Numbered from the stretch's first letter, positions 2,977-51,114 are shown. The stretch is DNA of 64,000 nt from Patescibacteria group bacterium (GCA_028716665.1 JAQUPP010000001.1:37313-101312), one strand, 5' to 3'. Numbers and translations: made by a program. Notes: generated by a model not told the origin, from the letters alone.

Positions 2977-3699
2977 TTAAGAACGAGAGATTTTTTCAAA
3001 ATATTTCAAACCATTTTCGTCTTTACCGGCTTCCACAAAATCTTCAAAAACAACCGGAATAATCATTTTAACTTCTTCCAATAATTTACCCATTACTTCT
3101 CTGATTTCCCAATGAGCCGGTCGAGCAGTTCTCATTTTAAAAATATGCCGCCATTCACGAAAATTCGCTGAAACAACAATTTGAGATTTAATCGCCGTGG
3201 GCAGAATTTGTCTGGCATCTTGCGGCAACCAACCTGCCTTTCTTAATCCTCGATAAAATTCTTCCGTTTCTTGAAGCATTTCGGCCATGGACATTTCTCG
3301 GCCGTCAGCCAATTTAACTTTTTCATTTTCATCTTTATGAGCCGGAACAACGCATTTTAATTCAAATTTTTCCAAGTCCACTTCCGCGCCCGGTTTGGCA
3401 TAATCCACATAACGGGTTGATTCTTGAGAAATACCCATTATACGATGGCGAACCAATTCATGAGTCAAGCCGCGGGAACAATCATTAAATTGAACAATCA
3501 TCAAACTGTGCTCCATTACGCTTTCGTGCCCGAGTTTTAAAATCATTTTAACGAATTTTTCCGCGGTTTCCTGAGTTATTTCTTGAGCAACTGATTGATA
3601 ACAAGTCCTCCCCGCTTTTTCAATGGTTAACAACTGCGATTTTAAATTTTCTTTAGGCGTTAAAATAACAAAATTTCCGGCACTTTTAAGTATTTTCAT
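2977..3699 (-). CDS. thyX: flavin-dependent thymidylate synthase ThyX
   Basis: ThyX signature RHR...S motif (VRHRIMGISQESTRY) and length 240 aa. Confidence 0.8.
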   Translation of the reverse strand: MKILKSAGNFVILTPKENLKSQLLTIEKAGRTCYQSVAQEITQETAEKFVKMILKLGHESVMEHSLMIVQFNDCSRGLTHELVRHRIMGISQESTRYVDYAKPGAEVDLEKFELKCVVPAHKDENEKVKLADGREMSMAEMLQETEEFYRGLRKAGWLPQDARQILPTAIKSQIVVSANFREWRHIFKMRTARPAHWEIREVMGKLLEEVKMIIPVVFEDFVEAGKDENGLKYFEKISRS

Positions 3700-3921
3700 A
3701 CCAGGTAGTAGAACTTTGACAATTTTTGTCCAATCATCAAAGTTTTAAATTAATTAATTAATTAAATTATTTTAGAAAACCTTTGTTTGTTATATGAATT
3801 TTTTGTCCGACCAAAAATCAACAAAATTAAAGCTTTCAAACAGATTAAGTACGCAATATAGATATTACCAGGTAAAACTTTTTAGCTGCGAAGGACAAGT
3901 CAAAGTCCACTACCTGGCATA
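3698..3921 (-). repeat. structured repeat element copy 1 (about 224 bp) forming the thyX 5' leader
   Basis: Near-perfect terminal inverted repeats ccaggtagtagaactttgac ... gtcaaagtccactacctggcata. The thyX ATG (revcomp of 3697-3699) abuts the arm. About 90% identical to copy 2. Confidence 0.75.
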
Positions 3922-3925
3922 TTTT

Positions 3926-5044
3926 TTAAATTATATTTTTAAATGTTTTAAAAGTTTTTTCAGCGCATTTTTGCCAAGAAAATTCTTTTACCCTTTCTAA
4001 CCCTTTTTCTATCAGCACTTTTCTCAAATCTTGCTCATTAATTATTCTTTTAATCGCTTCAATCATTTGCAATGAATTTTCGGGGTTAAAATACAGAGCT
4101 GCGTCTTGAGCGACTTCGGGCAAAGAACCTTGATTTGAGGCGACAATCGGACAACCGGAGGCCATTGCTTCAAGTAAAGGGATACCGAATCCTTCATAAA
4201 AAGAAGGAAAAACAAACGCTTCTGCTCCGGCGTATAAATAAACCAAGTCTTTCGGTTCAACATAATTAATTTGACGAATTTTTTCTCCCAAAGATTTAAT
4301 TTGTGATTTCGCTTCTTGATAACCGAATCCCGGGCTTCCGGCCAAAACCAAATTTAGAATTTGGAATTTAGAATTTAGAATTTGGAGCTGCTGATAGGCG
4401 TTAATCAATCCTTTGATATTTTTCTTTTTCTCCAGCCGGCCGACAAAAAAAAGATAAGGCTTTTTAATCTGATATTTAATCAAAATTTCTTCTATTTTAT
4501 TTTTATCTTCAATCAAATTATAATTTTCACTGTATCCCAAAGGGATGACGATTATTTTATTCGGATCTGTTTTATATAAATTTATTATTTCCGTTTTTGT
4601 AAATTCCGACGGAGTGATAATTTTATCGGCATATTTGGCGGCAAAAGAATGAACCAGTGAGTAATAAATTCTCTGCCCAAAAGTATAAGCTTTTGGGAAA
4701 CGCTTGAATCCAAGATCGTGAATGGTCATTATTTTTTTAGCTCGGCAAAAAATAGGCAAACAATGAGCCGGAACAAATAAAATATCCGGCGGATTAATCA
4801 ACATTTCCCAAGATAATCTCTTCTGAGTCCAAAAATATTTCAAGGGCCAAGATAAAATTTTAGTTTTCCAGCCGGCCGGCATAATTCCCAAATCTCCTTT
4901 TAATTCTTCCGACGCGTATAAAATAAATTTATCCCCCTGAGACAGAGGGATTTTTTTTAATTCTTGAATCAAATGGTAGGAATACCATTCAACGCCTGTT
5001 TTTTGCGGGCGATTTGCCCTCGAAGCATCAATGCCGATAATCAT
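3926..5044 (-). CDS. glycosyltransferase family 4 (GT-B)
   Basis: C-terminal EX7E-like motif ...FYEGFGIPLLEAMASGCPIVASNQGSLPEV. Confidence 0.75.
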   Translation of the reverse strand: MIIGIDASRANRPQKTGVEWYSYHLIQELKKIPLSQGDKFILYASEELKGDLGIMPAGWKTKILSWPLKYFWTQKRLSWEMLINPPDILFVPAHCLPIFCRAKKIMTIHDLGFKRFPKAYTFGQRIYYSLVHSFAAKYADKIITPSEFTKTEIINLYKTDPNKIIVIPLGYSENYNLIEDKNKIEEILIKYQIKKPYLFFVGRLEKKKNIKGLINAYQQLQILNSKFQILNLVLAGSPGFGYQEAKSQIKSLGEKIRQINYVEPKDLVYLYAGAEAFVFPSFYEGFGIPLLEAMASGCPIVASNQGSLPEVAQDAALYFNPENSLQMIEAIKRIINEQDLRKVLIEKGLERVKEFSWQKCAEKTFKTFKNII

Positions 5045-5047
5045 AAA

Positions 5048-6055
5048 TTATTTCATTGCCATAAGACTCTTTTTATAAGAATCCAAATTTTCCAAAGCTA
5101 TACCTGTTCCTCGAGCTACGCAAAGTAACGGTTCTTCGGCTACATAAGCCGGCACGCCGGTAACTTGAGTGAAAAGTTTATCTAAATTTCTGATTAAAGC
5201 CGTACCTCCGGATAAAACCATGCCTTTTTCCATAATATCAGCCGCCAATTCGGGCGGAGTTTCATAAAGCACGGATTTTATCGCCGAAACAATAGCATTA
5301 AGTTCATCTTGAATGGCTTCTGTTATATCATCAGAATCAATGGTAATAATTTTAGGTAAACCGGTAATCATGTCTCTGCCCTTAATATCCATTTTCAATT
5401 TTTTTTCTAACGGCAAGGCCGAACCGATTCTGATTTTAATATCTTCGGCCGTTCTTTCACCAATCGCCAAATTATATTTTTTTCGGATGAAAACCATAAT
5501 CGCCGCATCTAATTTATTTCCAGCCACCCTGATGGAAGTTGAAGCAACAATTCCGCCCAAAGATATAACCGCTGATTCGGTTGTTCCTCCACCCATATCA
5601 ACAATCATATGTCCCGAAGCCGAACCAATGGGAATATTCGCGCCAATAGCCGAAGCAATCGGTTCTTTAATAATATAAGCCGCTCGAGCTCCGGCCGCCA
5701 TCGTCGCATCAATTACTGCTCTTCTTTCAGTTGAAGTAATGCCACCCGGCACTGCCACCATAACTTCCGGTCTGAAAAGACGAAAACGTCCGATCGCTTT
5801 ACCGATAAAATATCTTAACATGGCTTCAGTTGTTTTGTAATCCGCAATAACGCCATCTTTCAATGGTTTTTTTGCCACAATTGAATCAGGGGTTCGTCCG
5901 ATCATGGCCTTGGCTTCATCGCCAACAGCCAAGACGCTATTATCTGCCGTAGAAATTGCCACCACCGAAGGTTCATCGGTAACAATTCCTCGCCCTTGCA
6001 CATAAACCAAGATATTGGCCGTCCCTAAATCTATACCAATTTTTTTAGAAAACAT
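5048..6055 (-). CDS. mreB: rod shape-determining protein MreB
   Basis: [14 protein letters not shown]..., actin-like ATPase motifs, 335 aa. Confidence 0.9.
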
Positions 6056-6067
6056 AATAAATAATAT

Positions 6068-7126
6068 TTACGCTTTTAAATTTTTTTCCTCAAGTTCAAC
6101 TTCTCTTTTTTCTTTAAAATAATCACGGATCAAAATACTGATAACTGTGGCAATCGGAACAGAAATTAACATTCCGATCGGGCCGGCCAATCTTCCGCCA
6201 ATTAATAAAACGATCAAAGCCAAGGCCGGATTAAGTCCGACAACTTTATACATTATATTTGGAGAAATTATAAGATGCCCAATTTCTTGAATAATAATAT
6301 AGAGAATTATCACCAATAAACCTAAAAGCGGTGATTGAACAAAAGCGATAATTACCGCCGGAATAGCTCCTAAAGCAAAACCTATAAATGGAATCATCTC
6401 TCCGAAGCCGGTAATAATGGCTAAAATTAAAGCGAATTTAACTTTTAAAAAGAATAAGCCGATATAAGTTAGAATACCTATAATCAAGCAAATTAAGAAT
6501 TGACCTATCGCCCATCCGCTGACTTCTTTCTGGGATAATCTCATAAAATGCTCAAAAAAATGGCGATATTTTATCGGAATTATTAAATTCAAATAATTAT
6601 AGAAAGTGTGTTTCTGAATAGACAAATAAAAAGATATTATTAGAACCATGAATAAGGAAACAATCTGACCAATAGTATTTCCCAATAAAGAAAACATATT
6701 TGTGTCTCCCAGAACTTTCTGATTTAACCATTGATTTCCTAATTTTAAAAATTGTTCTTGGACACCTGCTGGTATTTTTACTACAATTGATTGAAAAACA
6801 TTCGGAATTTGATCAATAAAAATTTTCCCTTGTTCTACAATAGTCGGCCAAACGGCAAAACTGATACCGGTTAAAATCAATAGAATAAACAAGTAGACAA
6901 TTAATGCTCCCAGCCAACGGGGTAATTTTTTTCTTTCAAAAAAATTAACCGTGGGGTTAATAATCACGGCCAAAAAAACCGCGATTAAAACCATAAAAAT
7001 AATGTCGCGGATAAAATACAAAAACCAAAAACCCAAAAGAACTAAAACAACTTTAACAACTGATAAAAAATCTATACTAAAAACATTTGTATTTTTTGAA
7101 CTTGAATTATTTTGATTTTCAAACAT
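6068..7126 (-). CDS. AI-2E family (PerM/UPF0118-like) polytopic membrane transporter
   Basis: About 8 predicted transmembrane segments, about 350 aa, Gly/Pro-rich C-terminal helices typical of AI-2E permeases. Confidence 0.5.
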   Translation of the reverse strand: MFENQNNSSSKNTNVFSIDFLSVVKVVLVLLGFWFLYFIRDIIFMVLIAVFLAVIINPTVNFFERKKLPRWLGALIVYLFILLILTGISFAVWPTIVEQGKIFIDQIPNVFQSIVVKIPAGVQEQFLKLGNQWLNQKVLGDTNMFSLLGNTIGQIVSLFMVLIISFYLSIQKHTFYNYLNLIIPIKYRHFFEHFMRLSQKEVSGWAIGQFLICLIIGILTYIGLFFLKVKFALILAIITGFGEMIPFIGFALGAIPAVIIAFVQSPLLGLLVIILYIIIQEIGHLIISPNIMYKVVGLNPALALIVLLIGGRLAGPIGMLISVPIATVISILIRDYFKEKREVELEEKNLKA

Positions 7127-7340
7127 ACCAGGTAGTAGAACTTTGACAATTTTTGTGAAATTACCAAAGTTTTAAATTATTAATTAAATTATTTTAGGAA
7201 ACCTTTTTTATTTTATGAATTTTTTGTCCGACCAAAAATCAACAAATTAAATCTTCAACGATATGTTAGATGCGCAAAATATATACCAGATAAAACTTTT
7301 TAGTTGTGAGAGGACAAGTCAAAGTCCACTACCTGGCATA
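7125..7340 (-). repeat. structured repeat element copy 2 (about 216 bp) forming the leader of the AI-2E-like gene
   Basis: Same terminal inverted repeats and internal sequence as copy 1. The gene start codon (7124-7126, revcomp) directly abuts the arm. Confidence 0.75.
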
Positions 7341-7366
7341 AATTTTGATTTATATTTATACTTTAA

Positions 7367-8647
7367 TTATATCTCATCTTGCAAAATCCGCAAGAATTGG
7401 CGATTTTCTTTAAATGGCCCGATCATGGCCAAACTTAAATTTTTGTTTTTAAAAAGCTGGTTGGCTATTCTTTGAATATCAGATTGGCTGACCATTTTTA
7501 TCTTTTTTAATTTTTCTTTCGGTTCAATAATCTTGCCAACCAATAATAATTGCCTGCCGTACCATGAAGCCAAAGTGGCCGATTCTTCAAAAGAAAGCTT
7601 CATTGTCCCTTCAATGTAATCTTTAGCCCGAGTCAGTTCTTCTTTGCTTACGCCTTGTTTTTTAATTTTATTTAATTCTTCCAAAATAACTTTTAACGTT
7701 TCTTCCGTTCTGTTTTTATCAACACCGGCTCGAATTTCAAAACTGCCCGTATCTTGATAAACGCCCAATTCCATTTCCACGAAATAAGCCAGTCCTCTTT
7801 TTACTCTTATCTCGGTGAAAAGCCGCGAACTCATATTACCGCCCAAAATAAGGCTTAAAACACTAGCCGCTTCCAAATCGGGATGATGATAAGAATAGGC
7901 CAGGCCGCCTAAAGCGATTTGAACCTGATTGGTATCTTTGAATAAAATATTCGCTTTGGGCCAAGATTTTTTTTCTTCATTTTTAAAAAGCGAAAAATCA
8001 GTTTTATTTTTTTTGCCCTGATAAGCACCGAAGTATTTTTTAACCAATTTAATGGCTTCTTGATTTTTGATATTGCCCGCCACCACCACGATCATCTGAT
8101 TCGGCTGATAAAATTTTTCTTTATAAGCCATTAATTTTTGCTGGCTCATTTTTTGAACAGTCGGCATATCCCCGCTTACCAACCAACTTAAAGGATGATT
8201 TCCGAATAATACTTTTTCAAACATATCTTCAATATGAAGCAAAGGATTTTCTTCATACATTTTAACTTCCTCCAAAATAACTTTTTTTTCTCTTTCAAAT
8301 TCTTCTTTGTCAAAAACCGAATTAAAAACCATATCGGATAAAATATCAAAAGCTTTTTCCGTTTTATTATCAACCGCTTTTATCCAATAACCGGTATGAT
8401 CTTTGGAAGTAAACGCATTATATCTTGCTCCCAAACTGTCCAATTCTTTCGCCACCAATAAAGAAGACGGCCGACGCTTTGTGCCTTTGAACATCATGTG
8501 TTCAATAAAATGAGAGGCGCCGTTTAAATCCTTGGTTTCATAACGCGAACCAACCGGCAAGAGCACCTCAATCGTTACTGACTCGGCATTTTTAACCGGT
8601 ACTGTAATCAAGCGAAGGCCTTGAGATAATTTTGTTTGAAAGTACAT
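7367..8647 (-). CDS. M16 family zinc peptidase (pitrilysin/insulinase-like)
   Basis: Inverted zinc-binding motif HFIEH (HxxEH) near the N-terminus, 426 aa. Confidence 0.75.
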   Translation of the reverse strand: MYFQTKLSQGLRLITVPVKNAESVTIEVLLPVGSRYETKDLNGASHFIEHMMFKGTKRRPSSLLVAKELDSLGARYNAFTSKDHTGYWIKAVDNKTEKAFDILSDMVFNSVFDKEEFEREKKVILEEVKMYEENPLLHIEDMFEKVLFGNHPLSWLVSGDMPTVQKMSQQKLMAYKEKFYQPNQMIVVVAGNIKNQEAIKLVKKYFGAYQGKKNKTDFSLFKNEEKKSWPKANILFKDTNQVQIALGGLAYSYHHPDLEAASVLSLILGGNMSSRLFTEIRVKRGLAYFVEMELGVYQDTGSFEIRAGVDKNRTEETLKVILEELNKIKKQGVSKEELTRAKDYIEGTMKLSFEESATLASWYGRQLLLVGKIIEPKEKLKKIKMVSQSDIQRIANQLFKNKNLSLAMIGPFKENRQFLRILQDEI

Positions 8648-8648
8648 A

Positions 8649-9980
8649 TTAATTTTCTAATTTATCTTTTAACCAACCGGTTAATTCTGAAATTAAAATT
8701 CTTTCCTGTTTCATGGTGTCGCGGTCGCGAACCGTCACTTTTTTATCTTCCAAACTTTCAAAATCAACAGTCACGCAATAAGGCGTGCCGATTTCATCTT
8801 GGCGGCGATAACGTTTTCCGATAGAAGCCGTTTCGTCATATTGGCACATAAAATATTTTTGCAAATCGTGATAAATTTCTTTGGCCGGTTGAGATAATTC
8901 TTCTTTTTTTGATAAAGGCAAAATTGCCACCTTAATCGGGGCTAAATTTTTATGAAGGCGTAAAACTATTTCCGTTTCATGAACTGCATTTTCGCCGCCG
9001 GATCTGGTTTCAACTTCATCATAAGCATCAATTAAAAACAAAAGAACAGCTCGATCCGCGCCCATGGAAACTTCGTCAACGTAAGGAATGAATTTTTCTT
9101 TTGTTTCTTCGTTTGTGTAATTCATGTCCACGCCGCTGTATTTTCCGTGCCGCGACAAATCCCAATCCCCGCGATTATGAATGCCGGCGAATTCGCTCCA
9201 ATCGTCAAACGGTGTTTTGTATTCCACGTCCCAGGCCTCTTTGGCGTAATGCGCCAATTCGTCTTTTTCATGCTGGCGCAAACGCAAATTTTCCGGACGA
9301 TAAACCAAATTTTTATACCAATCAAAAGTCCAATCCTTCCATTCTTGATAATATTCATTCGCTTCTTTGGGCGAAACAAAATATTGCATTTCCATTTGTT
9401 CAAACTCGCGCGTTCTGAAAATAAAATTTCCGGGGGTTATTTCGTTTCTAAATGCCTTGCCGACTTGAGCAACGCCAAACGGCAATTTTTTTCTCATTGA
9501 TTCTTTAACATTTAAATAATTCAAATAAATTCCTTGGCAAGTTTCACCACGCATATAAGCTTCGTCTTGAGAACCTTCAACCGCGCCTAAATGAGTTTTC
9601 ATTAAGAGATTGAATTTCTTGCCTTCGGTGAGTTCGCCGCCGCAATCCGGGCATTTTTTGCCTTCAATTTTATCAGACCTGAATCTCTGATGGCACTTTT
9701 TACATTCCACCAACGGATCGGTAAAATTTTCCAAATGTCCCGACGCTTCCCAAACAATTTTGGGCGTTAAAATAGAGCTGTCCAATCCCACCACGTCATC
9801 TCTTTTTTGAACTATTTCTTTCCACCAAGTTCGCTTGATGTTATTTTTCAATTCAACGCCAAGAGGGCCAAAATCCCAAGAATTGGCCAATCCGCCGTAT
9901 ATTTCAGAACCGGGGAAGATAAATCCTCGGCGTTTGCACAACGAAATTATTTTATCCATTTTTGTTAGTTCTTTTGCCAT
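8649..9980 (-). CDS. glyQS: glycine--tRNA ligase (alpha2 type)
   Basis: N-terminal ...RRGFIFPGSEIYGG...WDFGPLG..., class II aaRS motifs, 443 aa. Confidence 0.9.
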   Translation of the reverse strand: MAKELTKMDKIISLCKRRGFIFPGSEIYGGLANSWDFGPLGVELKNNIKRTWWKEIVQKRDDVVGLDSSILTPKIVWEASGHLENFTDPLVECKKCHQRFRSDKIEGKKCPDCGGELTEGKKFNLLMKTHLGAVEGSQDEAYMRGETCQGIYLNYLNVKESMRKKLPFGVAQVGKAFRNEITPGNFIFRTREFEQMEMQYFVSPKEANEYYQEWKDWTFDWYKNLVYRPENLRLRQHEKDELAHYAKEAWDVEYKTPFDDWSEFAGIHNRGDWDLSRHGKYSGVDMNYTNEETKEKFIPYVDEVSMGADRAVLLFLIDAYDEVETRSGGENAVHETEIVLRLHKNLAPIKVAILPLSKKEELSQPAKEIYHDLQKYFMCQYDETASIGKRYRRQDEIGTPYCVTVDFESLEDKKVTVRDRDTMKQERILISELTGWLKDKLEN

Positions 9981-10011
9981 ATGACATTATTATAACGCTT
10001 TTTTAAAAAAA

Positions 10012-10052
10012 GAAAAGAGGGGCACGTCTGACCGACGGCCCCTTTTTTTATT
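10012..10052. terminator. bidirectional terminator hairpin
   Basis: ggggc-acgtctgaccgac-gcccc stem flanked by an A-run and a T-run. Confidence 0.55.
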
Positions 10053-10056
10053 TCAA

Positions 10057-10461
10057 TTAACATGGCAAATACTCTCCCTTTTCTATCTCATCTTTACTTA
10101 ATGCCTTCAAATGCTTATTCCATTCTTTATAAAAAGTTTCTTTCCCGCTTTTATCCTTAACTAACACAGACACAATCGGCCAGCCCTCTTCATCAGGATA
10201 ACTTATCTTTATGTCTTTTACTTTTGGACAAACATTCTGACAGCACTTAGTATGTTTCCATACACTGCCGGGAAACAATCCGCTTTCGTAACAAGCACAC
10301 CATTTAAGTTTAGTGTCTGAATCTGAAACCATAAGTCCTTGCAGAGTTGCACAATGCTCACAGATCCCCCTAATTAACAAATATTTGAAATCCTCCTTTA
10401 CTTGTACTTTTATAAGCCTGCAATCCTCCTTTACTTTTTTAAACCATTGAAGTATTTTCAT
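10057..10461 (-). CDS. hypothetical Cys-rich protein (12 Cys in 134 aa)
   Basis: ORF with a strong SD (aaaaaaaggaggaaaaATG) that is atypical for this genome. CxxC and CC motifs are present. No confident homology. Confidence 0.45.
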   Translation of the reverse strand: MKILQWFKKVKEDCRLIKVQVKEDFKYLLIRGICEHCATLQGLMVSDSDTKLKWCACYESGLFPGSVWKHTKCCQNVCPKVKDIKISYPDEEGWPIVSVLVKDKSGKETFYKEWNKHLKALSKDEIEKGEYLPC

Positions 10462-10561
10462 TTTTCCTCCTTTTTTTATTGAACTAATCTTAGATTATCA
10501 AAAATTAAGAATTTGTCAAGTCCCAAGATTGCCAACAAATTTTAAATAGGTATAATAAAGA

Positions 10562-10700
10562 TATGCCAGGTAGTGAAACTTTGACTTAGTCTTTTAAGGG
10601 GTTCTACCAAGCATATAAAGTAAAATTTTAATAATAAATTAACTATTTTTATAACTTTGACAGGAATAAATAACCGGTCAAAGTTCTACTACCTGGTATG
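10562..10700 (+). repeat. structured repeat element copy 3 (short form, 139 bp) forming the leader of the RmlD-like gene
   Basis: 5' arm tatgccaggtagtgaaactttgac, 3' arm gtcaaagttctactacctggtATG ending with the start codon. A TTGCCA-17-TATAAT promoter lies just upstream (10530-10554). Confidence 0.7.
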
Positions 10701-11549
10701 AAAAATAATAAACCAAGTTTTTATATTTTAGGGGCAAGCGGATTTATGGGCGGAAAATTCGTGGAATATCTAAAACAAAATAATTTTGAAGTTTCCAACG
10801 AAAGAATTGATATTACTGATTTGCCGGCTTTAAAGAAAAAATTTAAAGAAATCAAACCTGATGTGGTGATTAATTTTGCCGGCGTCAGAGCTTATCCGAA
10901 TATTGACTGGTGCGAAACTCACAAACAAGAAACAATTGCCGTAAATGTCGCGGGCGCGATTAACGTCGCTTTAGCCGCTCTGGAAGCGTCAAGTTTTATG
11001 ATTCAAATCGCTTCGGGCTGTATTTATTCCGGCACGCCGGAAACGCCTTTTAGCGAAGAAGATGAACCGAATTTTTTCGGCAGTTTTTATTCCAGAATGA
11101 GAGTCGCAATGCAAATGGCGCTTAAAGAATTGCCCGTTCTTCAATTGAGAATCAGAATGCCGATTTCCATGTATTCTCATCCGCGCAATCTGCTTAATAA
11201 AATAATTTCTTACAAAAAAGTTATTTCTTTGCCTAATTCCGTAACTTTAATTGAAGATATGTTTCCGGCTTTGGTTAAATTGGCGGAAATCAAACCGACC
11301 GGAATTTTAAATTTAGTGAATGACAATTATCTGACTCACGAACAAATGCTTAAAGCTTATCAAGAAATAGTCAATCCAAATCATCAATATGAATTAATTT
11401 CTTTGAATGAACTTTATAATATTACCAGCGCCAAACGAAGCAATTGCATTTTGTCCAATCAAAAAGCGAAAGATTTGGGAATAGAAATGCCGGCAATTGA
11501 CGAAAAACGGCTGAGAGAAATCATGGAAGTCTACAAAAAATCTTTGTAA
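10698..11549 (+). CDS. NAD(P)-dependent sugar epimerase/reductase (RmlD-like short-chain fold)
   Basis: N-terminal Rossmann motif ILGASGFMGG, 283 aa. Confidence 0.5.
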   Translation: MKNNKPSFYILGASGFMGGKFVEYLKQNNFEVSNERIDITDLPALKKKFKEIKPDVVINFAGVRAYPNIDWCETHKQETIAVNVAGAINVALAALEASSFMIQIASGCIYSGTPETPFSEEDEPNFFGSFYSRMRVAMQMALKELPVLQLRIRMPISMYSHPRNLLNKIISYKKVISLPNSVTLIEDMFPALVKLAEIKPTGILNLVNDNYLTHEQMLKAYQEIVNPNHQYELISLNELYNITSAKRSNCILSNQKAKDLGIEMPAIDEKRLREIMEVYKKSL

Positions 11550-21448: not shown

Positions 21449-21756
21449 TACGCCTTCCTCTTCTATTTTCCATAATAATATAAATTAACATTAACTCATT
21501 TTAACAAATTCCGCAACATAAAAAATTTATCAGTTAAAATAAAATGAGAGATAAATCTCTGATTTTTCCCTCACTTTATATAGTATCCTCATTATACCAA
21601 CCTTACGCCTATTTTCAAAGTCACTAAATAAAAATAATTTCGCAAGTGTGTAAATTTGGAAAGTTTTTTAAAGGAAAAAATAATTGAATTATCAGTGGCA
21701 ATCTTTAAATCTTGTCTAGCTTTGATAAAAATTATAATTTAAAAAAGATCACTTAA

Positions 21757-27234: not shown

Positions 27235-27353
27235 TAAAATTTCCTAGTTTTCATGCGCGTGAGATTATCTTCATTCAGCAATTTTAAAAATAAGTGCATG
27301 ATTGTTATAATAAATAAAGTGAGGAATAAATCTCTGATTTTTCCCTCACTTTA

Positions 27354-27429
27354 TGGTGGGCACTAGAGGACTCGAACCTCTGACCTTCACAATGTCAATG
27401 TGACGCGCTACCAACTGCGCCAAGTGCCC
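27354..27429 (-). tRNA. tRNA-Val (GAC), CCA encoded
   Basis: Acceptor gggcact/agtgccc, anticodon stem tcaca/tgtga with loop ttGACat, T-loop ttcgagt, 3' ...cccacca. Confidence 0.85.
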
Positions 27430-27843: not shown

Positions 27844-28158
27844 TTAATATCCTTGTTTGTGGCGTTTGATAATTTTTCTTTTTGATTTTAAAAAAGATTG
27901 TTCCAAATCAACGCCATAACGATTAGCCAAGGTCAATAAGCTGATTAAAATATCTCCCATTTCTTTGCCTAAATCAACTTTAATATTTTTTCTTTCTTTC
28001 TTGCCGGCTTGTTTTCTGATCATTTCCGCCATTTCACCAAGTTCTTCCATTAAAAATAAAATTTCCAGATGTTCGTCAACTGTTTGAGATTTTGTTTTCC
28101 AATCTTCGTCAACCCATTGCTGAGCTTTTTTTATTTCCATAATAAATAATTGTAACAA
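27844..28158 (-). CDS. MazG-like nucleotide pyrophosphohydrolase
   Basis: EExxE-type motif LMEELGEMAEMIRK, 104 aa. Confidence 0.7.
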   Translation of the reverse strand: MLQLFIMEIKKAQQWVDEDWKTKSQTVDEHLEILFLMEELGEMAEMIRKQAGKKERKNIKVDLGKEMGDILISLLTLANRYGVDLEQSFLKSKRKIIKRHKQGY

Positions 28159-28276: not shown

Positions 28277-29802
<1,526 letters not shown>

Positions 29803-40387: not shown

Positions 40388-42613
40388 TTAATATCCTCTT
40401 GTTTTTAACACGGCAATACTTGTTCCGCCCTTAAATTGTTTAGTATAAGCATAAAACTGACTAAGCTGCTTGCTGGAAAAACTGAAAACATTAACCTGGG
40501 GTTCCATGCCTTTTTTGGGACCGGTAATAATTTCCGCCTTTTGATCACCGTCAAAATCAGCCGTGACAAGATTAATTCCTCCATAAAATTCGCGAGAGTA
40601 AGCCAAAAATTGAAGTCTGAGTTGGAGAAATTCACTGGAAAAAACTCTCACATAAGGAGAAGCGCCCGAGGCCACACTGGCTAAAATTTCATCTTTCCCA
40701 TCACCGTCAACATCGCCTGAAGCGACATTCACGCCGCCCAAAAAAGTTTTATTAAAAGCGAAGAAATTTAATTCCATAACTCCCTGACCGTCTAAAACCC
40801 TGACATGAGGACCGCCTCCAAGACCTGCGCCGGTGATAATTTCGTCTTGACCGTCAGCATCAATATCTCCTGAAGCAATATTCACCCCGCCTTTAAAACT
40901 GGATTGATAAGCAAAAAATTCATTTTTTAAATTACCGGAAAAATCAAAAATTTTAATTTGAGTATTACTGGTCATTCCACTGGTGATAATTTCGTCTTTC
41001 CCATCACCGTCAACATCACCCGAAGCGACATTCACGCCGCCGGTAAAAGTTTTTGCATAAGCGAAAAATCCACTTTTCGGCTGGCCGTAAAGATCAAATA
41101 TTCTGACATGAGGTCCGCCGCCCGGACCTGCGCCGGTGATAATTTCGTCTTTCCCATCACCGTCAACATCACCCGAAGCGACATTCACGCCGCCGGTAAA
41201 AGTTTTTGCATAAGCGAAAAATCCACTTTTCGGCTGGCCGTAAAGATCAAATATTCTGACATGAGGTCCGCCGCCCGGACCTGCGCCGGTGATAATATAA
41301 TAAGATTGGGGCAATTCTCCGGCCTGATTAAAAGTACGTTCTATGGTTTTATAAGCATTAACCCGACCGCTGCCCAACTGACCGACTAAATTGGAATTTA
41401 AAGAATCAATATTGTCAGCCTGACTGATAATAAAACTTTGAACTTGTTTTTGAGTCAGTAGCGGGTTAACAGACCAAACTAATGCCGCCAACCCGGAAAT
41501 GACCGGCGCGGCAATGGAAGTGCCGGACCAATAACCTCCGTAATATTCTTTAAAATTTTCGTAATTTGAATTATAAACCAGCGGGCCATAAATGCGCGTT
41601 CCCGGCGCCGAGATATCAATACATTTTGAACCATAATTGGAAAAAGACGCTTTTTTATCAGCGCTGTCCGTAGCTGCTACGCCAATAATAAAATTTTCAT
41701 CATCTTCGTCCAAACAGACCGGATAATTAGGCGTGTTATTGAGATTCACCGGCTCGCCTGTTGTTTCGTTGCCACCGGCTGCCACGACAATCACTCCTCT
41801 TTGCCAAGCATTTTTTAGAGCTTCAGCTAAAAAATAACTTTTATTGGTGCCGACAAAACTTAAATTGATAACTTTTACTCCATTGTCAACCGCGTATTTA
41901 ACCGCTTGAATAACATGCTCTACTGTTCCCGACCCTTCACTGTTTAAAACTCTTAAAGACATAATTTTACTTTTAAAAGCTATACCGGCCGTACCCGCGG
42001 AATTATCTCCTGTTGCGGCAATAATGCCCGCGATTAAGGTGCCGTGATGAATGCCATTGGCGTCAAAAACTTCATCAAATTTAGGCTTTGGGTTTGGCAC
42101 ATTATTTATGAAATCCCATCCATTTATATCATCAATGTAACCGTTATGATCATTATCAATACCATCTCCTTTGATTTCATCTTTATTGGACCAAATATTA
42201 TTTTTTAAATCAGGATGATCAATGTCCACGCCTGTGTCTAAAACCGCCACCGTGATATCAGTGTTCCCTCCATGGGTTAAATCCCATGCCTGCGGTATTT
42301 GAATTTTATCCAAATACCATTGTTCAAAATAAAGCGGATCATTGGGAATATAAGCGATTTTAAATGAATAATTCGGTTCAGCCCATTCTATTTCCGATCG
42401 TTCAAGAATAATTTTTTGAAATTCTTCAATTGGCAAATCATTTGATTCGACATTATAAATTTTTGAAGAATCTTTCAATTTAATTAAAAGTTCTCCTGTT
42501 TCCGGAATAGTGGAAGAATGAGCTATTTTAGGGAAATTGAAAAAAGTTGTCATACTCAAAATAACAACTAAAAAAATAACAAATATATTTTTTTGATTAA
42601 TCAATTTCATCAA
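40388..42613 (-). CDS. secreted subtilisin-like serine protease (S8) with C-terminal FG-GAP/beta-propeller repeats
   Basis: Catalytic triad VAVLDTGVD / HGTLIAG / GTSIAAPVISG. Repeated ASGDVDGDGKDEIITGAGPGGGPHVRIFD FG-GAP-like units. Signal peptide present. Confidence 0.8.
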   Translation of the reverse strand: MMKLINQKNIFVIFLVVILSMTTFFNFPKIAHSSTIPETGELLIKLKDSSKIYNVESNDLPIEEFQKIILERSEIEWAEPNYSFKIAYIPNDPLYFEQWYLDKIQIPQAWDLTHGGNTDITVAVLDTGVDIDHPDLKNNIWSNKDEIKGDGIDNDHNGYIDDINGWDFINNVPNPKPKFDEVFDANGIHHGTLIAGIIAATGDNSAGTAGIAFKSKIMSLRVLNSEGSGTVEHVIQAVKYAVDNGVKVINLSFVGTNKSYFLAEALKNAWQRGVIVVAAGGNETTGEPVNLNNTPNYPVCLDEDDENFIIGVAATDSADKKASFSNYGSKCIDISAPGTRIYGPLVYNSNYENFKEYYGGYWSGTSIAAPVISGLAALVWSVNPLLTQKQVQSFIISQADNIDSLNSNLVGQLGSGRVNAYKTIERTFNQAGELPQSYYIITGAGPGGGPHVRIFDLYGQPKSGFFAYAKTFTGGVNVASGDVDGDGKDEIITGAGPGGGPHVRIFDLYGQPKSGFFAYAKTFTGGVNVASGDVDGDGKDEIITSGMTSNTQIKIFDFSGNLKNEFFAYQSSFKGGVNIASGDIDADGQDEIITGAGLGGGPHVRVLDGQGVMELNFFAFNKTFLGGVNVASGDVDGDGKDEILASVASGASPYVRVFSSEFLQLRLQFLAYSREFYGGINLVTADFDGDQKAEIITGPKKGMEPQVNVFSFSSKQLSQFYAYTKQFKGGTSIAVLKTRGY
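40982..41287. repeat. perfect 153-bp x 2 tandem duplication inside the subtilase FG-GAP region
   Basis: 40982-41134 is identical to 41135-41287, with a further diverged unit at about 40830-40980. It encodes a duplicated 51-aa FG-GAP unit. Confidence 0.8.
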
Positions 42614-49054: not shown

Positions 49055-51034
49055 TTATTTTGATGTATAACCGGAAATTTTAAATTTAAAACCAAATCCT
49101 TCCGCGGTTGGTTTATATGGAATCTCAACAAATAATTGCCCTGCTTTATTCTTCTTGAAAAAAATCGGCGACCATCGATTGGCTTCCGCCAAAAGCGCTA
49201 ATTTTAAATATTTGCCATTTGCAGAATCCGATTGTTTTAAAAGCTGCAAAAAATCATTAATCAAACTTCCCGACTTAACGATTATTTTCAGTTTTCCTTT
49301 TTTATGTTGATAGTCGCATTGTCCTTTTTGTTGATAATCGCCGAATTTGGAGAAACGCAGTAAGCTCATGGCGTCCCAACCGAATTCTCCCAGCCAATAT
49401 TCTATATATATGGAAGGCAATTCGCAAAGATAAAAATTATTATATTCATCAAAAGAAAAACCCAGGGGATGAGTATTTTTATTTCTTTTTTTAAAAGCGA
49501 TTTTAATCAATTTGAAAAGTTCTTGCGGCTGTTTTTTTAAAAATTCTTTATCTTTGTGATTTTCAAAATATTCTTTGGCGAATTTTGAAAACTCTCCCGG
49601 CGCATATTCCCAGTAACCTTTTAAAGAAGGCAATAATCGGGTGGTTCCCAAATCGTCAACCACGTGCATAACATCATAAATATCCATTCCGTTTTTCAAT
49701 TTAAAAATAGCGTCGCGCCATTTTATCGCTTTTTCCAATTCTCTCAATTTAATCGCCTTATTCATCTCGTCTTCAAACTCCAAAACCATCGAGCTGAAAT
49801 CAGCAGCCATAACTCTCTCTTTGTAGGGTCTTAATTTTACTGTTTTAAAAGCCTGGCGATGCGCTTGCCTGATTAATCCGGATCTTTGATATTCAAAAGC
49901 CAAATCAATAATTGCGCGATAATAATTTTCCGATTTTTCTTTTATTTTATGGCTTATTTTAGGAATCAAAAAAACAATCTTTTTTAAATTAAAAGCGCTT
50001 TGCTCTATCATTTCCAAACTCCACCAAGGCTTGGCCGAAGCCCACCAATATTGATCACTAGACAATGCCTTATCCAATTTATCTCTGATTTCTTTATAAT
50101 TAGCGACATTTTTATCCAATTTTGAGACTAAATCAATTACAAAATAAGTAAGTTCCCACTGATGGCAATGAATCGGATTCCCCGGATTTTGCCAAAGAGT
50201 GAATGGGTGTTGTTTTTCTTTTTCCAGCCAAAAATCCTGCTCCTCAGAGCTCCAAGTGCAATCCCGAGGAATAATTTTTTCATTATTTGTTGAAAAATTT
50301 TTAATCAATTCCGAAATAAAAACTTTTTCAATTTTTTGATCCTGATAAATTTCGAAAAGTAAATTCTCCAAACCCGGACGATGATGACCAAATGTTTCGC
50401 CGTCCATTACCGTCAAAAGATAACGGTCTTTTTTAATTTCATCTCCGATTTCGCTGGTCAAAGATTTAAAATTTCGGCAAATGGCCGAGAGAATCAAATT
50501 GCTGATTCTTTTATCGCGAAAAATAATTTTCAAATGATTCAATTTTTGAATCGGATAAATTTTTTTAAAATCCGGTTTTTGCGGCGAAGCCAATTCTTCA
50601 GCGACAATCCATTTAAAACCGCATTCTTCCACAACTTTTGCCACTTTTTCGCTGTAAGCCAATTCGGGTGAAAAAAATCCTTTTGGCTGCCAATATTTTC
50701 CGAAATATTTTTTATTGGTTTCATTATTCAAAAGAATTTGCCTTTTAATTTCTTCTTTCGGCAATAAAGGCAAAAAGGGGTGATATTTAACCCCTCCGGT
50801 GAATTCAATTTGTCCGCGCTTGGCAAAATCTTTTATTTGCTCAATCACGTCTTGATAGCCGTTTTTCGCCAATAATTCTGTTAATCCGGCGCTGATATTA
50901 ATGGTAATTTTCGCCCGGGGATTAAGAGCCAAACCGCTGATTATTTTACGATAACTTTCATTGACTATTCGCTCTAAAATATCCAATTGCTGGCTTGATG
51001 GTTGATAAAAATGTAGAAAAATAGCCCATTTCAT
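49055..51034 (-). CDS. glycoside hydrolase family 57 protein (alpha-glucan branching / amylase-like)
   Basis: N-terminal FLHFYQP and DGETFGHH motifs typical of GH57. Adjacent to glgA. Confidence 0.6.
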   Translation of the reverse strand: MKWAIFLHFYQPSSQQLDILERIVNESYRKIISGLALNPRAKITINISAGLTELLAKNGYQDVIEQIKDFAKRGQIEFTGGVKYHPFLPLLPKEEIKRQILLNNETNKKYFGKYWQPKGFFSPELAYSEKVAKVVEECGFKWIVAEELASPQKPDFKKIYPIQKLNHLKIIFRDKRISNLILSAICRNFKSLTSEIGDEIKKDRYLLTVMDGETFGHHRPGLENLLFEIYQDQKIEKVFISELIKNFSTNNEKIIPRDCTWSSEEQDFWLEKEKQHPFTLWQNPGNPIHCHQWELTYFVIDLVSKLDKNVANYKEIRDKLDKALSSDQYWWASAKPWWSLEMIEQSAFNLKKIVFLIPKISHKIKEKSENYYRAIIDLAFEYQRSGLIRQAHRQAFKTVKLRPYKERVMAADFSSMVLEFEDEMNKAIKLRELEKAIKWRDAIFKLKNGMDIYDVMHVVDDLGTTRLLPSLKGYWEYAPGEFSKFAKEYFENHKDKEFLKKQPQELFKLIKIAFKKRNKNTHPLGFSFDEYNNFYLCELPSIYIEYWLGEFGWDAMSLLRFSKFGDYQQKGQCDYQHKKGKLKIIVKSGSLINDFLQLLKQSDSANGKYLKLALLAEANRWSPIFFKKNKAGQLFVEIPYKPTAEGFGFKFKISGYTSK

Positions 51035-51114
51035 ATCAATATTATATCACTATTTTAAAAAATATAAAAGCCAAGAACTGATTAAATATCAACTCTTGAC
51101 TTTTATATAAAAAT

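Follow-up and report, generated by a model that had tools for sequence, protein, structure and literature searches.

Results

The window, by which we mean the whole stretch of 64,000 nucleotides analysed from a Patescibacteria group bacterium, contains three repeats that abut the genes for ThyX, an AI-2E permease and an RmlD-like protein (Table 1). An earlier note had described three copies in the same orientation before unrelated genes, with 24 nt identical among them. Indeed, we find that the 24-mer GTCAAAGTTCTACTACCTGGTATG occurs exactly three times in the window, each time ending on the ATG of one of these Pfam-confirmed genes, and shuffled sequences are expected to contain none. The 5′ arm sequences given in that note agree with our reading of the copies, but copies 1 and 2 share 83% rather than about 90% identity in their interiors, and the arms do not reach through the ATG: the element proper ends before it, and the TATG on each side is duplicated target. 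Searches with nhmmer profiles of both short and long forms of the repeat matched these three copies and nothing else in the window, neither additional copies nor decayed relics.

The three host genes were correctly described as having no SD sequence, and most other genes in the window have none either; the host genome appears to be SD-poor and rich in leaderless genes, in which TATAAT lies 6–9 nt before the ATG. A promoter-like site does precede copy 3, to which a promoter of its own (TTGCCA-17-TATAAT) had been credited, but its spacer is 16 nt and it belongs to the host gene, being also present at the empty site, where 6 nt separate its end from the ATG, as would suit a leaderless gene.

Table 1. 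Repeats, host genes and related sites in the window
Feature	Position	Strand	Remarks
thyX (Thy1 domain)	2977..3699	-	Pfam; host gene of copy 1
Copy 1 with flanking TATG	3697-3921	-	
GTCAAAGTTCTACTACCTGGTATG, copy 1	3697-3720	-	
MITE-like copy 1, upstream of thyX	3701..3917	-	217 nt, long form, family a
Copy 1, 5′ arm	3899-3917	-	19 nt, GTGGAC variant
Copy 1, 3′ arm	3701-3720	-	
Copy 1, downstream TATG	3697..3700	-	Duplicated target; holds thyX start codon (ATG = 3699..3697)
Copy 1, upstream TATG	3918..3921	-	Duplicated target; ATG opens 6-codon uORF MPGSGL* (3900-3920), running into 5′ arm
AI-2E family transporter gene (AI-2E_transport)	6068..7126	-	Pfam; host gene of copy 2
Copy 2 with flanking TATG	7124-7340	-	
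GTCAAAGTTCTACTACCTGGTATG, copy 2	7124-7147	-	
MITE-like copy 2, upstream of AI-2E permease gene	7128..7336	-	209 nt, long form, family a
Copy 2, 5′ arm	7318-7336	-	
Copy 2, 3′ arm	7128-7147	-	
Copy 2, downstream TATG	7124..7127	-	Duplicated target; holds AI-2E start codon (7126..7124)
Copy 2, upstream TATG	7337..7340	-	Duplicated target; uORF MPGSGL* (7319-7339)
Unoccupied TATG, start of class II aminoacyl-tRNA synthetase gene (8649-9980)	9978..9981	-	Orthologous site in L015: 121-nt family member
Host promoter-like site TTGCCA-16-TATAAT	10529..10556	+	Outside element; present at empty site in L015
Copy 3 with flanking TATG	10562-10700	+	
MITE-like copy 3, upstream of RmlD-like gene	10566..10696	+	131 nt, long form, family b
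Copy 3, 5′ arm	10566-10585	+	
Copy 3, 3′ arm	10677-10696	+	
GTCAAAGTTCTACTACCTGGTATG, copy 3	10677-10700	+	
Copy 3, upstream TATG	10562..10565	+	Duplicated target; uORF MPGSETLT* (10563-10589)
Copy 3, downstream TATG	10697..10700	+	Duplicated target; holds RmlD-like start codon (10698-10700)
RmlD-like / NAD-dependent epimerase gene (RmlD_sub_bind/Epimerase)	10698..11549	+	Pfam; host gene of copy 3
Unoccupied TATG, start of MazG-like ORF downstream of 16S rRNA gene	28138..28141	-	Orthologous site in L026: 134-nt family member
Unoccupied TATG, start of GH57 gene (49055-51034)	51032..51035	-	Ortholog in L061: 160-nt family member

The repeats belong to a family for which we count 57 distinct sites of insertion, spread over 51 loci in Patescibacteria MAGs and metagenomes, all with paired arms. 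Both ends of the 57 copies carry 20-bp terminal inverted repeats (TIRs), CCAGGTAGTGAAACTTTGAC ... GTCAAAGTTCTACTACCTGG. These are near-invariant, one terminus reading CCAGGTAGTG(A/G)AACTTTGAC and the opposite one GTCAAAGTTCTACTACCTGG; 47 copies have the consensus 3′ arm and 37 the consensus 5′ arm. The interiors, in contrast, are variable, non-coding and rich in hairpins, with only 55–95% identity, orthologous sites included, and the inner hairpins differ in sequence among members and remain hairpins. Near-invariant arms with divergent interiors fit the need for recognition by a transposase. Element lengths run from 61 to 217 nt, divided between long forms (121–217 nt, n = 29) and short forms (61–88 nt). 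The only ORFs inside the elements are variable uORFs of 6–37 codons, with no transposase gene among them, and a search of ~400 kb of loci for arm pairs 0.4–4 kb apart with at most 5 mismatches returned no autonomous copy with a transposase, only noise and pairs of separate MITEs. The arm pattern had no match in viral contigs, the elements had no Rfam match at either the gathering threshold or E ≤ 1, and we found no description of this repeat family in the literature on leaderless translation or MITEs in Patescibacteria/CPR.

Insertion is marked by a direct duplication of the target, of 3–5 bp and mostly 4 bp. The 4-nt flanks are identical at 39 of the 57 sites, compared to 11.5 expected from shuffled pairing (maximum 18), and another 8 sites share 3 nt of flank. 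For all three sites in the window there are close relatives in which the site is empty and carries a single TATG, against an exact TATG duplication where it is filled. At the RmlD site the window and L004 carry the element and L015 does not; at the thyX site it is present in the window, L001 and L002 and absent from L070 (thyX 97% identical); and at the AI-2E site the window has it and L076 and L077 do not (AI-2E 78–89% identical). Conversely, three start-codon TATG sites that are unoccupied in the window hold family members in relatives (Table 1). Six orthologous sites are thus seen in both the filled and the empty state, and the presence of the element varies between strains in which the flanking genes are 78–97% identical; the comparison fits equally a true duplication or an element ending in TATG that inserted 3′ of a TATG.

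Because the empty sites read a single TATG and the lengths of the homologs are unchanged (239–241 aa with 98–100% coverage for thyX, 352 aa for AI-2E), the sequence comparisons indicate that the ATG is native to each host gene, duplicated within the TATG target on insertion and not supplied by the element. The leader and ATG common to the three genes are what insertion leaves behind, rather than a switch built for translational control. The idea of a MITE that donates a leader and a start codon therefore stands with respect to the MITE, given the TIRs, the target duplications, the filled and empty sites and the dozens of copies elsewhere, but fails with respect to the start codon. We conclude that the repeats very probably form a small, mobile, non-autonomous MITE-like family that is widespread in Patescibacteria.

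Long and short forms land at different sites. NATG is duplicated in all 29 long forms, and in 28 of them its ATG begins an ORF of 76 codons or more, the remaining one being truncated at a contig end. The interior has the same polarity in 29 of 29 long forms, including two (L007 and L008) in which the GA/AG asymmetry of the arms is swapped, and the long-form profile scores 77–83 bits on the sense strand versus about 10–30 bits on the antisense strand. Short forms lie at the TTGA of −35 boxes or just before SD sequences, in both orientations relative to genes; start codons in the 57-site set host only long forms, never short forms. The target tetranucleotides differ by subfamily (TATG, TTGA, TAAG), and the orientation of an element is correlated with the strand of its target (27:2 for TATG, 6:1 for TTGA). 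About 55% of the TATG sites outside coding sequence in the window are start codons, and a simple preference for a 4-bp target explains only in part why every long form occupies a start codon with a single polarity. A preference for leaderless promoters over any TATG start was rejected, as a −10-like box lies 5–9 nt upstream at 16 of the 29 insertions and, among 30 TATG-start genes of the window that are unoccupied, at 16, which amounts to no enrichment. The host genes are functionally unrelated (thyX, permease, epimerase, aaRS, MazG, GH57, PNP and HlyD).

Some elements carry promoter-like sequences: TTCATA-17/18-TAAAAT is conserved in copies 1 and 2, and in some families TATAAT lies 8 nt upstream of the 3′ arm. 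Promoter-like matches in the elements are, however, no more frequent than in shuffled sequence, and none is common to all four subfamilies. We rejected an outward promoter in the 3′ arm, where the hexamers at the right distance (TCTACT and TACTAC) are without the key −11A or −7T and promoter-like counts equal those of shuffled sequence. Also rejected was an in-frame N-terminal extension or conserved uORF peptide: the uORFs stop within their 6–37 codons, their frames vary, and only the arm-encoded MPGSETLT is conserved.

Minimum free energy (MFE) folds of all three leaders pair both arms and place the AUG inside the helix, as had been proposed, with energies of −63.7, −49.4 and −37.8 kcal/mol for copies 1–3 (z-scores −6.8, −4.0 and −4.4). 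The further argument, that G•U pairs form only in the mRNA sense and so imply function at the RNA level, is not borne out. The internal GA/AG difference between the arms gives one G•U and one A•C on either strand, while the terminal G•U pairs and the AUG–UAU pairing arise because TATG is a wobble-self-complementary direct repeat that flanks the element. Sense and antisense MFE do not differ significantly among the 29 long forms, either for the full element (p = 0.09) or for the interior (p = 0.40), and no covariation of the internal arm copy with variant 5′ arms or duplicated targets was seen. The co-transcribed hairpin may still have a secondary effect on regulation.

Discussion

We propose that a transposase supplied in trans, probably DDE-like given the TIRs and the 3–5 bp target duplication, would bind the terminal repeats and make a staggered cut, mostly of 4 bp, that is repaired into the direct duplication; in the lineage of the window, the target would be the (T)ATG of a gene start codon. 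After insertion one TATG would remain next to the upstream gene or native promoter, and the second would serve as the start codon directly after the 3′ arm, which would account for the identical 21 nt plus ATG before three unrelated genes. The element would probably be co-transcribed from the native promoter as a 5′ hairpin, with the upstream ATG copy founding a short uORF through the 5′ arm, and the host gene presumably stays expressed, whether by ribosomes at the upstream ATG that melt the stem, by internal decoy arms or, in long forms, by an internal promoter. There are essential genes among the hosts, such as the class II aaRS gene in L015, so ribosomes must still be able to use an AUG that abuts a 20-bp stem and lacks an SD; this suggests that the element is more than inert.

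The very stable helix around the AUG, the three host genes with no SD, the fixed polarity of long forms relative to the gene and the maintenance of inner hairpins despite sequence differences would all be expected of a dedicated cis-regulatory RNA leader (an AUG-sequestering hairpin, a thermosensor or a helicase-dependent leader), with the repeats marking a regulon. Nonetheless, we consider the dedicated control element that the earlier note had entertained to be very unlikely, since presence varies among closely related strains at all three sites, the unrelated host genes make up no defined gene set, the flanking direct repeats are a hallmark of transposition, the sense strand has no folding advantage, the G•U pairs are explained by the target duplication, and no Rfam family matches. 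Moreover, short members occur in both orientations and also upstream of −35 boxes, where they would fall outside the mRNA. A different kind of mobility, in which a Y1/HUH transposase moves a single-stranded DNA hairpin of the REP/REPIN-RAYT or IS200/IS605 (PATE) type, inserting it 3′ of a guide-specified tetranucleotide so that the apparent duplication is the target plus the element end, accommodates the empty-site comparisons as well as transposition by a DDE-type enzyme does. It would also suit the fold of the whole element as one long imperfect hairpin, the subfamily-specific tetranucleotides, the tracking of target strand by orientation and the GTAG in each arm, a motif conserved in REPs. 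We regard it as very unlikely, because the flanking repeats are exact and of 3, 4 or 5 nt, as expected of staggered DDE-type cuts, IS200/IS605 elements end in two separate subterminal hairpins on a single strand rather than in terminal inverted repeats, REPs typically lie at gene 3′ ends, and unsystematic inspection saw no RAYT or TnpA gene beside any copy.

The behaviour of the long forms might instead reflect exaptation of the MITE, such that they act as mobile leader or promoter cassettes in which a polar interior preserves expression of the gene once its start codon has received the insertion. That interior holds a degenerate internal copy of the 3′ arm, an AT-rich segment and an internal 5′-arm copy resembling AACTTTGAC, and expression could be maintained either by an internal outward promoter that leaves the 5′ arm out of the mRNA or by decoy pairing that frees the outer 3′ arm and the AUG. 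The restriction of start codons to long forms, the shared polarity even where GA/AG is swapped, the strand bias of the profile scores, the two promoter-like motifs and the tolerance of an insertion by an essential aaRS gene all point this way. We nevertheless hold exaptation to be somewhat unlikely: the promoter-like matches occur at shuffled frequency and in no case across all four subfamilies, the internal arm copies show no compensatory changes to variant 5′ arms, the thermodynamic fold still favours the terminal stem, and the long forms could owe their polarity to a shared ancestor, combined with orientation-specific insertion into a target that is asymmetric. Still less probable, in our judgement, is that long forms have become adapted to the start codons of genes that are SD-less or leaderless, perhaps integrating via promoter-bound or melted DNA and with an architecture that keeps the gene translatable. 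A perfect terminal helix flanked by two AUG copies, with a polar interior, would then allow a ribosome loaded at the native 5′ end or at an upstream stop, on the upstream AUG, to melt or bypass the hairpin and reach the downstream AUG, a bacterial analogue of ribosome shunting or uORF-driven unmasking; short relatives at −35 TTGA and at TSS/SD-proximal sites would share the promoter-seeking behaviour.

The explanation of an apparent shared regulatory leader as a transposon footprint prevents its misannotation as a riboregulator. The MITE-like family appears to be a previously undescribed, currently mobile repeat family of Patescibacteria with unusually precise landing sites, and its members are natural experiments on translation start in CPR bacteria that may also serve as markers of strain-level variation. 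If the start-codon bias is due to targeting, not selection, the family would offer one of the rare bacterial examples in which integration is aimed at the starts of genes.

Among known bacterial MITEs, the Correia/NEMIS elements of Neisseria are non-coding, ~100–200 bp long, with TIRs of roughly 20–26 bp, target duplications, many copies and filled and empty sites, and when co-transcribed they form long stem-loops able to affect the expression of neighbouring genes (PMC3184786). The Patescibacteria family is likewise short and non-coding with TIRs, target duplications and filled and empty sites, but its sequence is unrelated, and it duplicates 3–5 bp (TATG, TTGA and others) rather than the TA of scattered intergenic Correia sites. 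Correia elements have a family-specific 26-bp TIR and TA duplication, and their hairpins are processed by RNase III. Confinement of long forms to NATG starts in one polarity, with short forms at −35 TTGA or before SD sequences, further distinguishes the Patescibacteria elements, as does a host lineage that is SD-poor and appears rich in leaderless genes. The Neisseria REP2 and Borrelia IR repeats directly precede many genes unrelated to one another, have stem-loops in their interior, and either stop at the ATG or contain it (PMC3184786). They resemble our elements in adjoining the ATG of unrelated genes, but have no TIRs and bring their own promoter, RBS and ATG, whereas the present elements lack an RBS, adjoin an ATG that is duplicated host sequence and, at copy 3, lie downstream of a promoter that is the host's.

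RAYT-mobilised REPs and REPINs are also hairpin-forming intergenic repeats with two inverted arms and conserved stem asymmetries, but they do not duplicate a target and show no link to start codons, unlike the present family with its 3–5 nt direct repeats. Termini that begin with CC and an A/T-rich duplication of 4–5 bp (TTAA for piggyBac) make IS1380 or piggyBac-type elements a tentative lead, as a likeness rather than a sign of membership, although TATG and TTGA are not strict palindromes. Mycobacterial MIRUs are polar intergenic repeats placed precisely at flanking stop and start codons, with small ORFs; they share polarity, exact start-codon positioning and small ORFs with the Patescibacteria family, but are built of tandem direct-repeat units with neither TIRs nor target duplications.

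A family of inverted-repeat elements at start codons

The 24-mer GTCAAAGTTCTACTACCTGGTATG occurs three times in the window, with a chance expectation of none, and as the earlier note had described, each occurrence terminates on the ATG of an ORF identified by Pfam (see Table). The partner arms of 19-20 nt read CCAGGTAGTGGACTTTGAC in copies 1 and 2 and CCAGGTAGTGAAACTTTGAC in copy 3. Predicted RNA folds of copies 1, 2 and 3 (-63.7, -49.4 and -37.8 kcal/mol; z-scores -6.8, -4.0 and -4.4) pair arm with arm in all three leaders and include the AUG in the pairing, in agreement with the helix proposed there. No Rfam family matched the elements at the gathering score or at E ≤1. The window belongs to a Patescibacteria MAG; identical thyX loci are present in GCA_028690995.1 and GCA_028713475.1. 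All three copies lie within 7 kb (3701-10696), with none in the remaining 57 kb and 30 other T-ATG start codons unoccupied; this clustering may reflect local hopping or chance.

Table. Coordinates of elements, host genes and other features; L numbers are loci fetched from other Patescibacteria MAGs or metagenomes
Feature	Locus	Position (strand)	Remark
thyX	window	2977-3699		Pfam Thy1; ORF behind copy 1
24-mer, copy 1	window	3697-3720 (-)	
Element, copy 1	window	3701-3917 (-)	
AI-2E family transporter	window	6068-7126	Pfam; ORF behind copy 2
24-mer, copy 2	window	7124-7147 (-)	
Element, copy 2	window	7128-7336 (-)	
Class II aaRS start codon	window	9978-9981	Single unoccupied TATG; family member in L015
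TATG-start regions, examples	window	9981-10000, 51035-51052, 10529-10565	
Element, copy 3	window	10566-10696 (+)	
Inner 13 nt of 5' arm, example	window	10574-10586	Near-palindrome
24-mer, copy 3	window	10677-10700 (+)	
RmlD/epimerase-like protein	window	10698-11549	Pfam; ORF behind copy 3
Second repeat	window	21537-21586, 27307-27354	43-48 nt
MazG-like ORF start codon	window	28138-28141	Single unoccupied TATG; family member in L026
16S rRNA 3' tail	window	28278-28300 (-)	
741-aa ORF	window	40388-42613	
Tandem copies in 741-aa ORF	window	40521-41287	Period 150-156 nt
GH57 start codon	window	51032-51035	Single unoccupied TATG; family member in L061
Tandem 15-nt units	L061	2650-2720 (-)	
Family member	L008	2395-2541	147 nt; at TATG start codon
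Short element	L020	2954-3019	Inverted relative to L042
Short element	L042	571-638	Inverted relative to L020

Scanning species-representative genomes with an arm pattern identified copies in other Patescibacteria MAGs, and a metagenome scan with an arm-only pattern, from which the ATG was deliberately left out, yielded 59 loci. Pairing of the arms gave about 70 elements of 61-217 nt, which reduce to 57 distinct sites spread over 51 loci. Arm sequences hardly vary, with GTCAAAGTTCTACTACCTGG as the 3' arm in 47 and CCAGGTAGTGAAACTTTGAC as the 5' arm in 37 of the 57 distinct sites, counts in which one arm is fixed by the search pattern and the other is free. The interiors are unrelated across subfamilies and 55-95% identical inside a subfamily, orthologous sites included. 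We found identical 4-nt flanks at 39 of the 57 sites, compared to 11.5 expected by shuffled pairing (maximum 18), and at 12 of 28 short forms alone, compared to 1.4 expected; eight further sites match over 3 nt and a few over 5 nt. No autonomous copy of the element was found in the fetched loci. One member (L008) lies on a contig, CAYYDP010000008.1, that is binned as 'Gammaproteobacteria'; the contig is probably mis-binned Patescibacteria, or else a sign of wider host range.

Filled and empty sites

Orthologous sites were located by BLAST of the element flanks against all fetched DNA. The RmlD site is filled in the window and in L004 and empty in L015, where it reads TTGCCA-N17-TATAAT-aaaga-TATG-aaaaataat. 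The thyX site, filled in the window, is empty in L070 (...TATAATttaaaaaaTATGaaaatactt), which has a 97% identical thyX and an upstream glycosyltransferase gene that ends 5 nt before the ATG. Similarly, the AI-2E site is filled in the window and empty in L076 and L077 (...aaatcaaaattTATGtttgaaaa), and L076 belongs to the same MAG as the one with the RmlD insertion. Three other start codons occupied in fetched loci are unoccupied in the window (see Table). At every site compared, adding the element and a second TATG to the empty allele gives the filled one, and the window proteins are as long as their thyX (239-241 aa) and AI-2E permease (352 aa) homologs. Thus, each ATG is native to its gene as the start codon, and the sequence that the three genes share is the footprint of an insertion.

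The upstream TATG copy at filled sites stays in place with respect to the native promoter or the upstream stop codon, and opens a uORF across the 5' arm (MPGSGL* for copies 1 and 2, MPGSETLT* for copy 3). These uORFs show no conservation beyond the arm, and none reads through in frame into the gene. Upstream of the insertion in L061 are about four tandem 15-nt units (GTTATAATGTTACTAT), each with a TATAAT, so that a repeated -10 box precedes the GH57 gene.

Landing sites of long and short forms

Long forms (121-217 nt) occupy 29 distinct sites, the three window copies included, all of which have an NATG duplication. It reads TATG in 25; the others have AATG, ATG or, with the arms in reverse orientation, CATA/CATG. 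In 28 of the 29, an ORF of 76 codons or more begins at the ATG; the last is cut by a contig end. The polarity of the interior with respect to the gene is identical in all, including L007 and L008, in which the arm asymmetry is swapped. From the 5' arm, the layout runs through an often present GC-rich hairpin, a degenerate copy of the outer half of the 3' arm and then CATA/TAT to an AT-rich stretch and, often, a AACTTTGAC-like internal copy of the 5' arm 12-21 nt before the 3' arm. With a profile of the long forms, sense-strand scores are 77-83 bits, compared to about 10-30 for the antisense strand.

None of the short forms (61-88 nt, 28 sites) is at a start codon; about 19 of the 28 lie 5-21 nt upstream of one, often directly before AAGGAGG, on either side. 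Seven short or odd members (L012, L025, L031, L037, L040, L063 and L069) have a TTGA duplication that coincides with bases 1-4 of -35-like hexamers, and the downstream sequence fits TTGACx-16/17-TAnnnT promoters; as judged by this fit, the insertions are at promoter -35 elements. In the 5' arm, the inner 13 nt (GTGAAACTTTGAC) form a near-palindrome (GTNAAANTTTNAC) that contains TTGAC, similar to the -35 hexamers targeted by short forms, and could be bound by a dimeric protein.

The window holds 403 TATG/CATA sites, with the T outside coding sequence in 60, of which 33 are start codons; much of the start-codon bias is therefore due to selection against gene disruption. Such selection does not account for 29 of 29 sites (0.55^29 ∼3e-8) or for the single polarity. 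Since -10-like boxes are not enriched at insertion sites (16/29 versus 16/30 for other TATG-start genes), insertion seems to follow the TATG start codon and not the leaderless promoter. The specificity for start codons, the single polarity and the fact that essential genes tolerate the element are all real features.

A recognisable SD precedes only about 7 of the 59 window ORFs, and 33 of the 59 have a TATG start. A -10-like (TATAAT-like) hexamer lies 5-9 nt upstream of about half of the TATG-start genes, compared to 2 of 25 other genes, which suggests, from sequence, many leaderless mRNAs in this genome. The 16S rRNA tail (...CACCUCAUUU / ...GGAUGGAACACCUCAUUU) has CCUCA as anti-SD core where CCUCC would be usual. 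Behind the 16S gene lie the MazG-like ORF and tRNAs, and not a 23S gene.

RNA element or mobile element

The earlier note had weighed a dedicated translational switch against a MITE. It placed the AUG within the helix, opposite UAU; this pairing and the terminal G·U pairs follow from the duplicated TATG, which as a direct repeat flanking a hairpin happens to be wobble self-complementary (U·G, A-U, U-A, G·U). It also took G·U pairs confined to the mRNA sense as a sign of RNA-level function. However, the internal difference conserved between the arms, GTGAAAC against the complement of GTTCTAC, produces one G·U and one A·C on top and bottom strand alike, so neither strand is favoured. Sense and antisense MFEs are not significantly different among the 29 long forms: the sense strand is the more stable in 20 for the full element (MFE, p = 0.09) and in 16 for the interior (p = 0.40). 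Short forms near genes are seen in both orientations, and L020 and L042 carry a short element in opposite orientations at one orthologous site, immediately ahead of AAGGAGG-N3-ATG, which implies independent insertions at one hotspot or in situ inversion between the arms. With no significant sense MFE advantage, both orientations among short forms and this inversion, a purpose-built sense-strand RNA element is disfavoured, and the dedicated switch is without support.

The MITE alternative was right. Bacterial MITEs are defined as small, non-coding, multicopy elements that have terminal inverted repeats (TIRs) and a target duplication and occur at sites seen both filled and empty (PMC3184786), and the family has all of these features. 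It differs from Correia/NEMIS elements in sequence and in duplication, and also from REPINs, which are not known to make a duplication. Neisseria REP2 and Borrelia IR repeats, from which it is likewise distinct, have their own promoter, RBS and ATG without TIRs (PMC3184786). We found no account of such a family in Patescibacteria/CPR in the literature. The family consists of MITEs with start-codon (long) and promoter/SD-proximal (short) landing sites, in an SD-poor and apparently leaderless-rich lineage.

The comparisons show a non-coding TIR element with start codons as landing sites, a duplication of 3-5 bp (mostly 4 bp), and presence that varies among close strains. It would be mobilised in trans by a DDE-type transposase; its termini, which begin with CC, and its A/T-rich 4-5 bp duplication suggest a possible resemblance to IS1380/piggyBac. 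Once inserted, it would be co-transcribed as a 5' hairpin. There are several candidate routes by which an AUG that abuts a 20-bp helix with no SD would be used, even in an essential aaRS gene. Ribosomes loaded on the upstream AUG copy might melt the stem, or kinetic folding into two local domains via the internal arm copies might leave CUACUACCUGGUAUG single-stranded. Other candidates are RNase III processing, which occurs in Correia elements, and an internal promoter (e.g. TTCATA-17/18-TAAAAT in copies 1 and 2), for which matches within the elements were not above shuffled expectation.

Other repeats in the window

A second, unrelated repeat (93% identical) forms a hairpin, AAAGTGAGG...CCCTCACTTT. 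One copy borders the 3' end of a tRNA gene, and the second is flanked by two minus-strand genes; a terminator-like role is possible. The 741-aa ORF contains about five tandem copies, 63-100% identical, which are probably a repeated protein domain.
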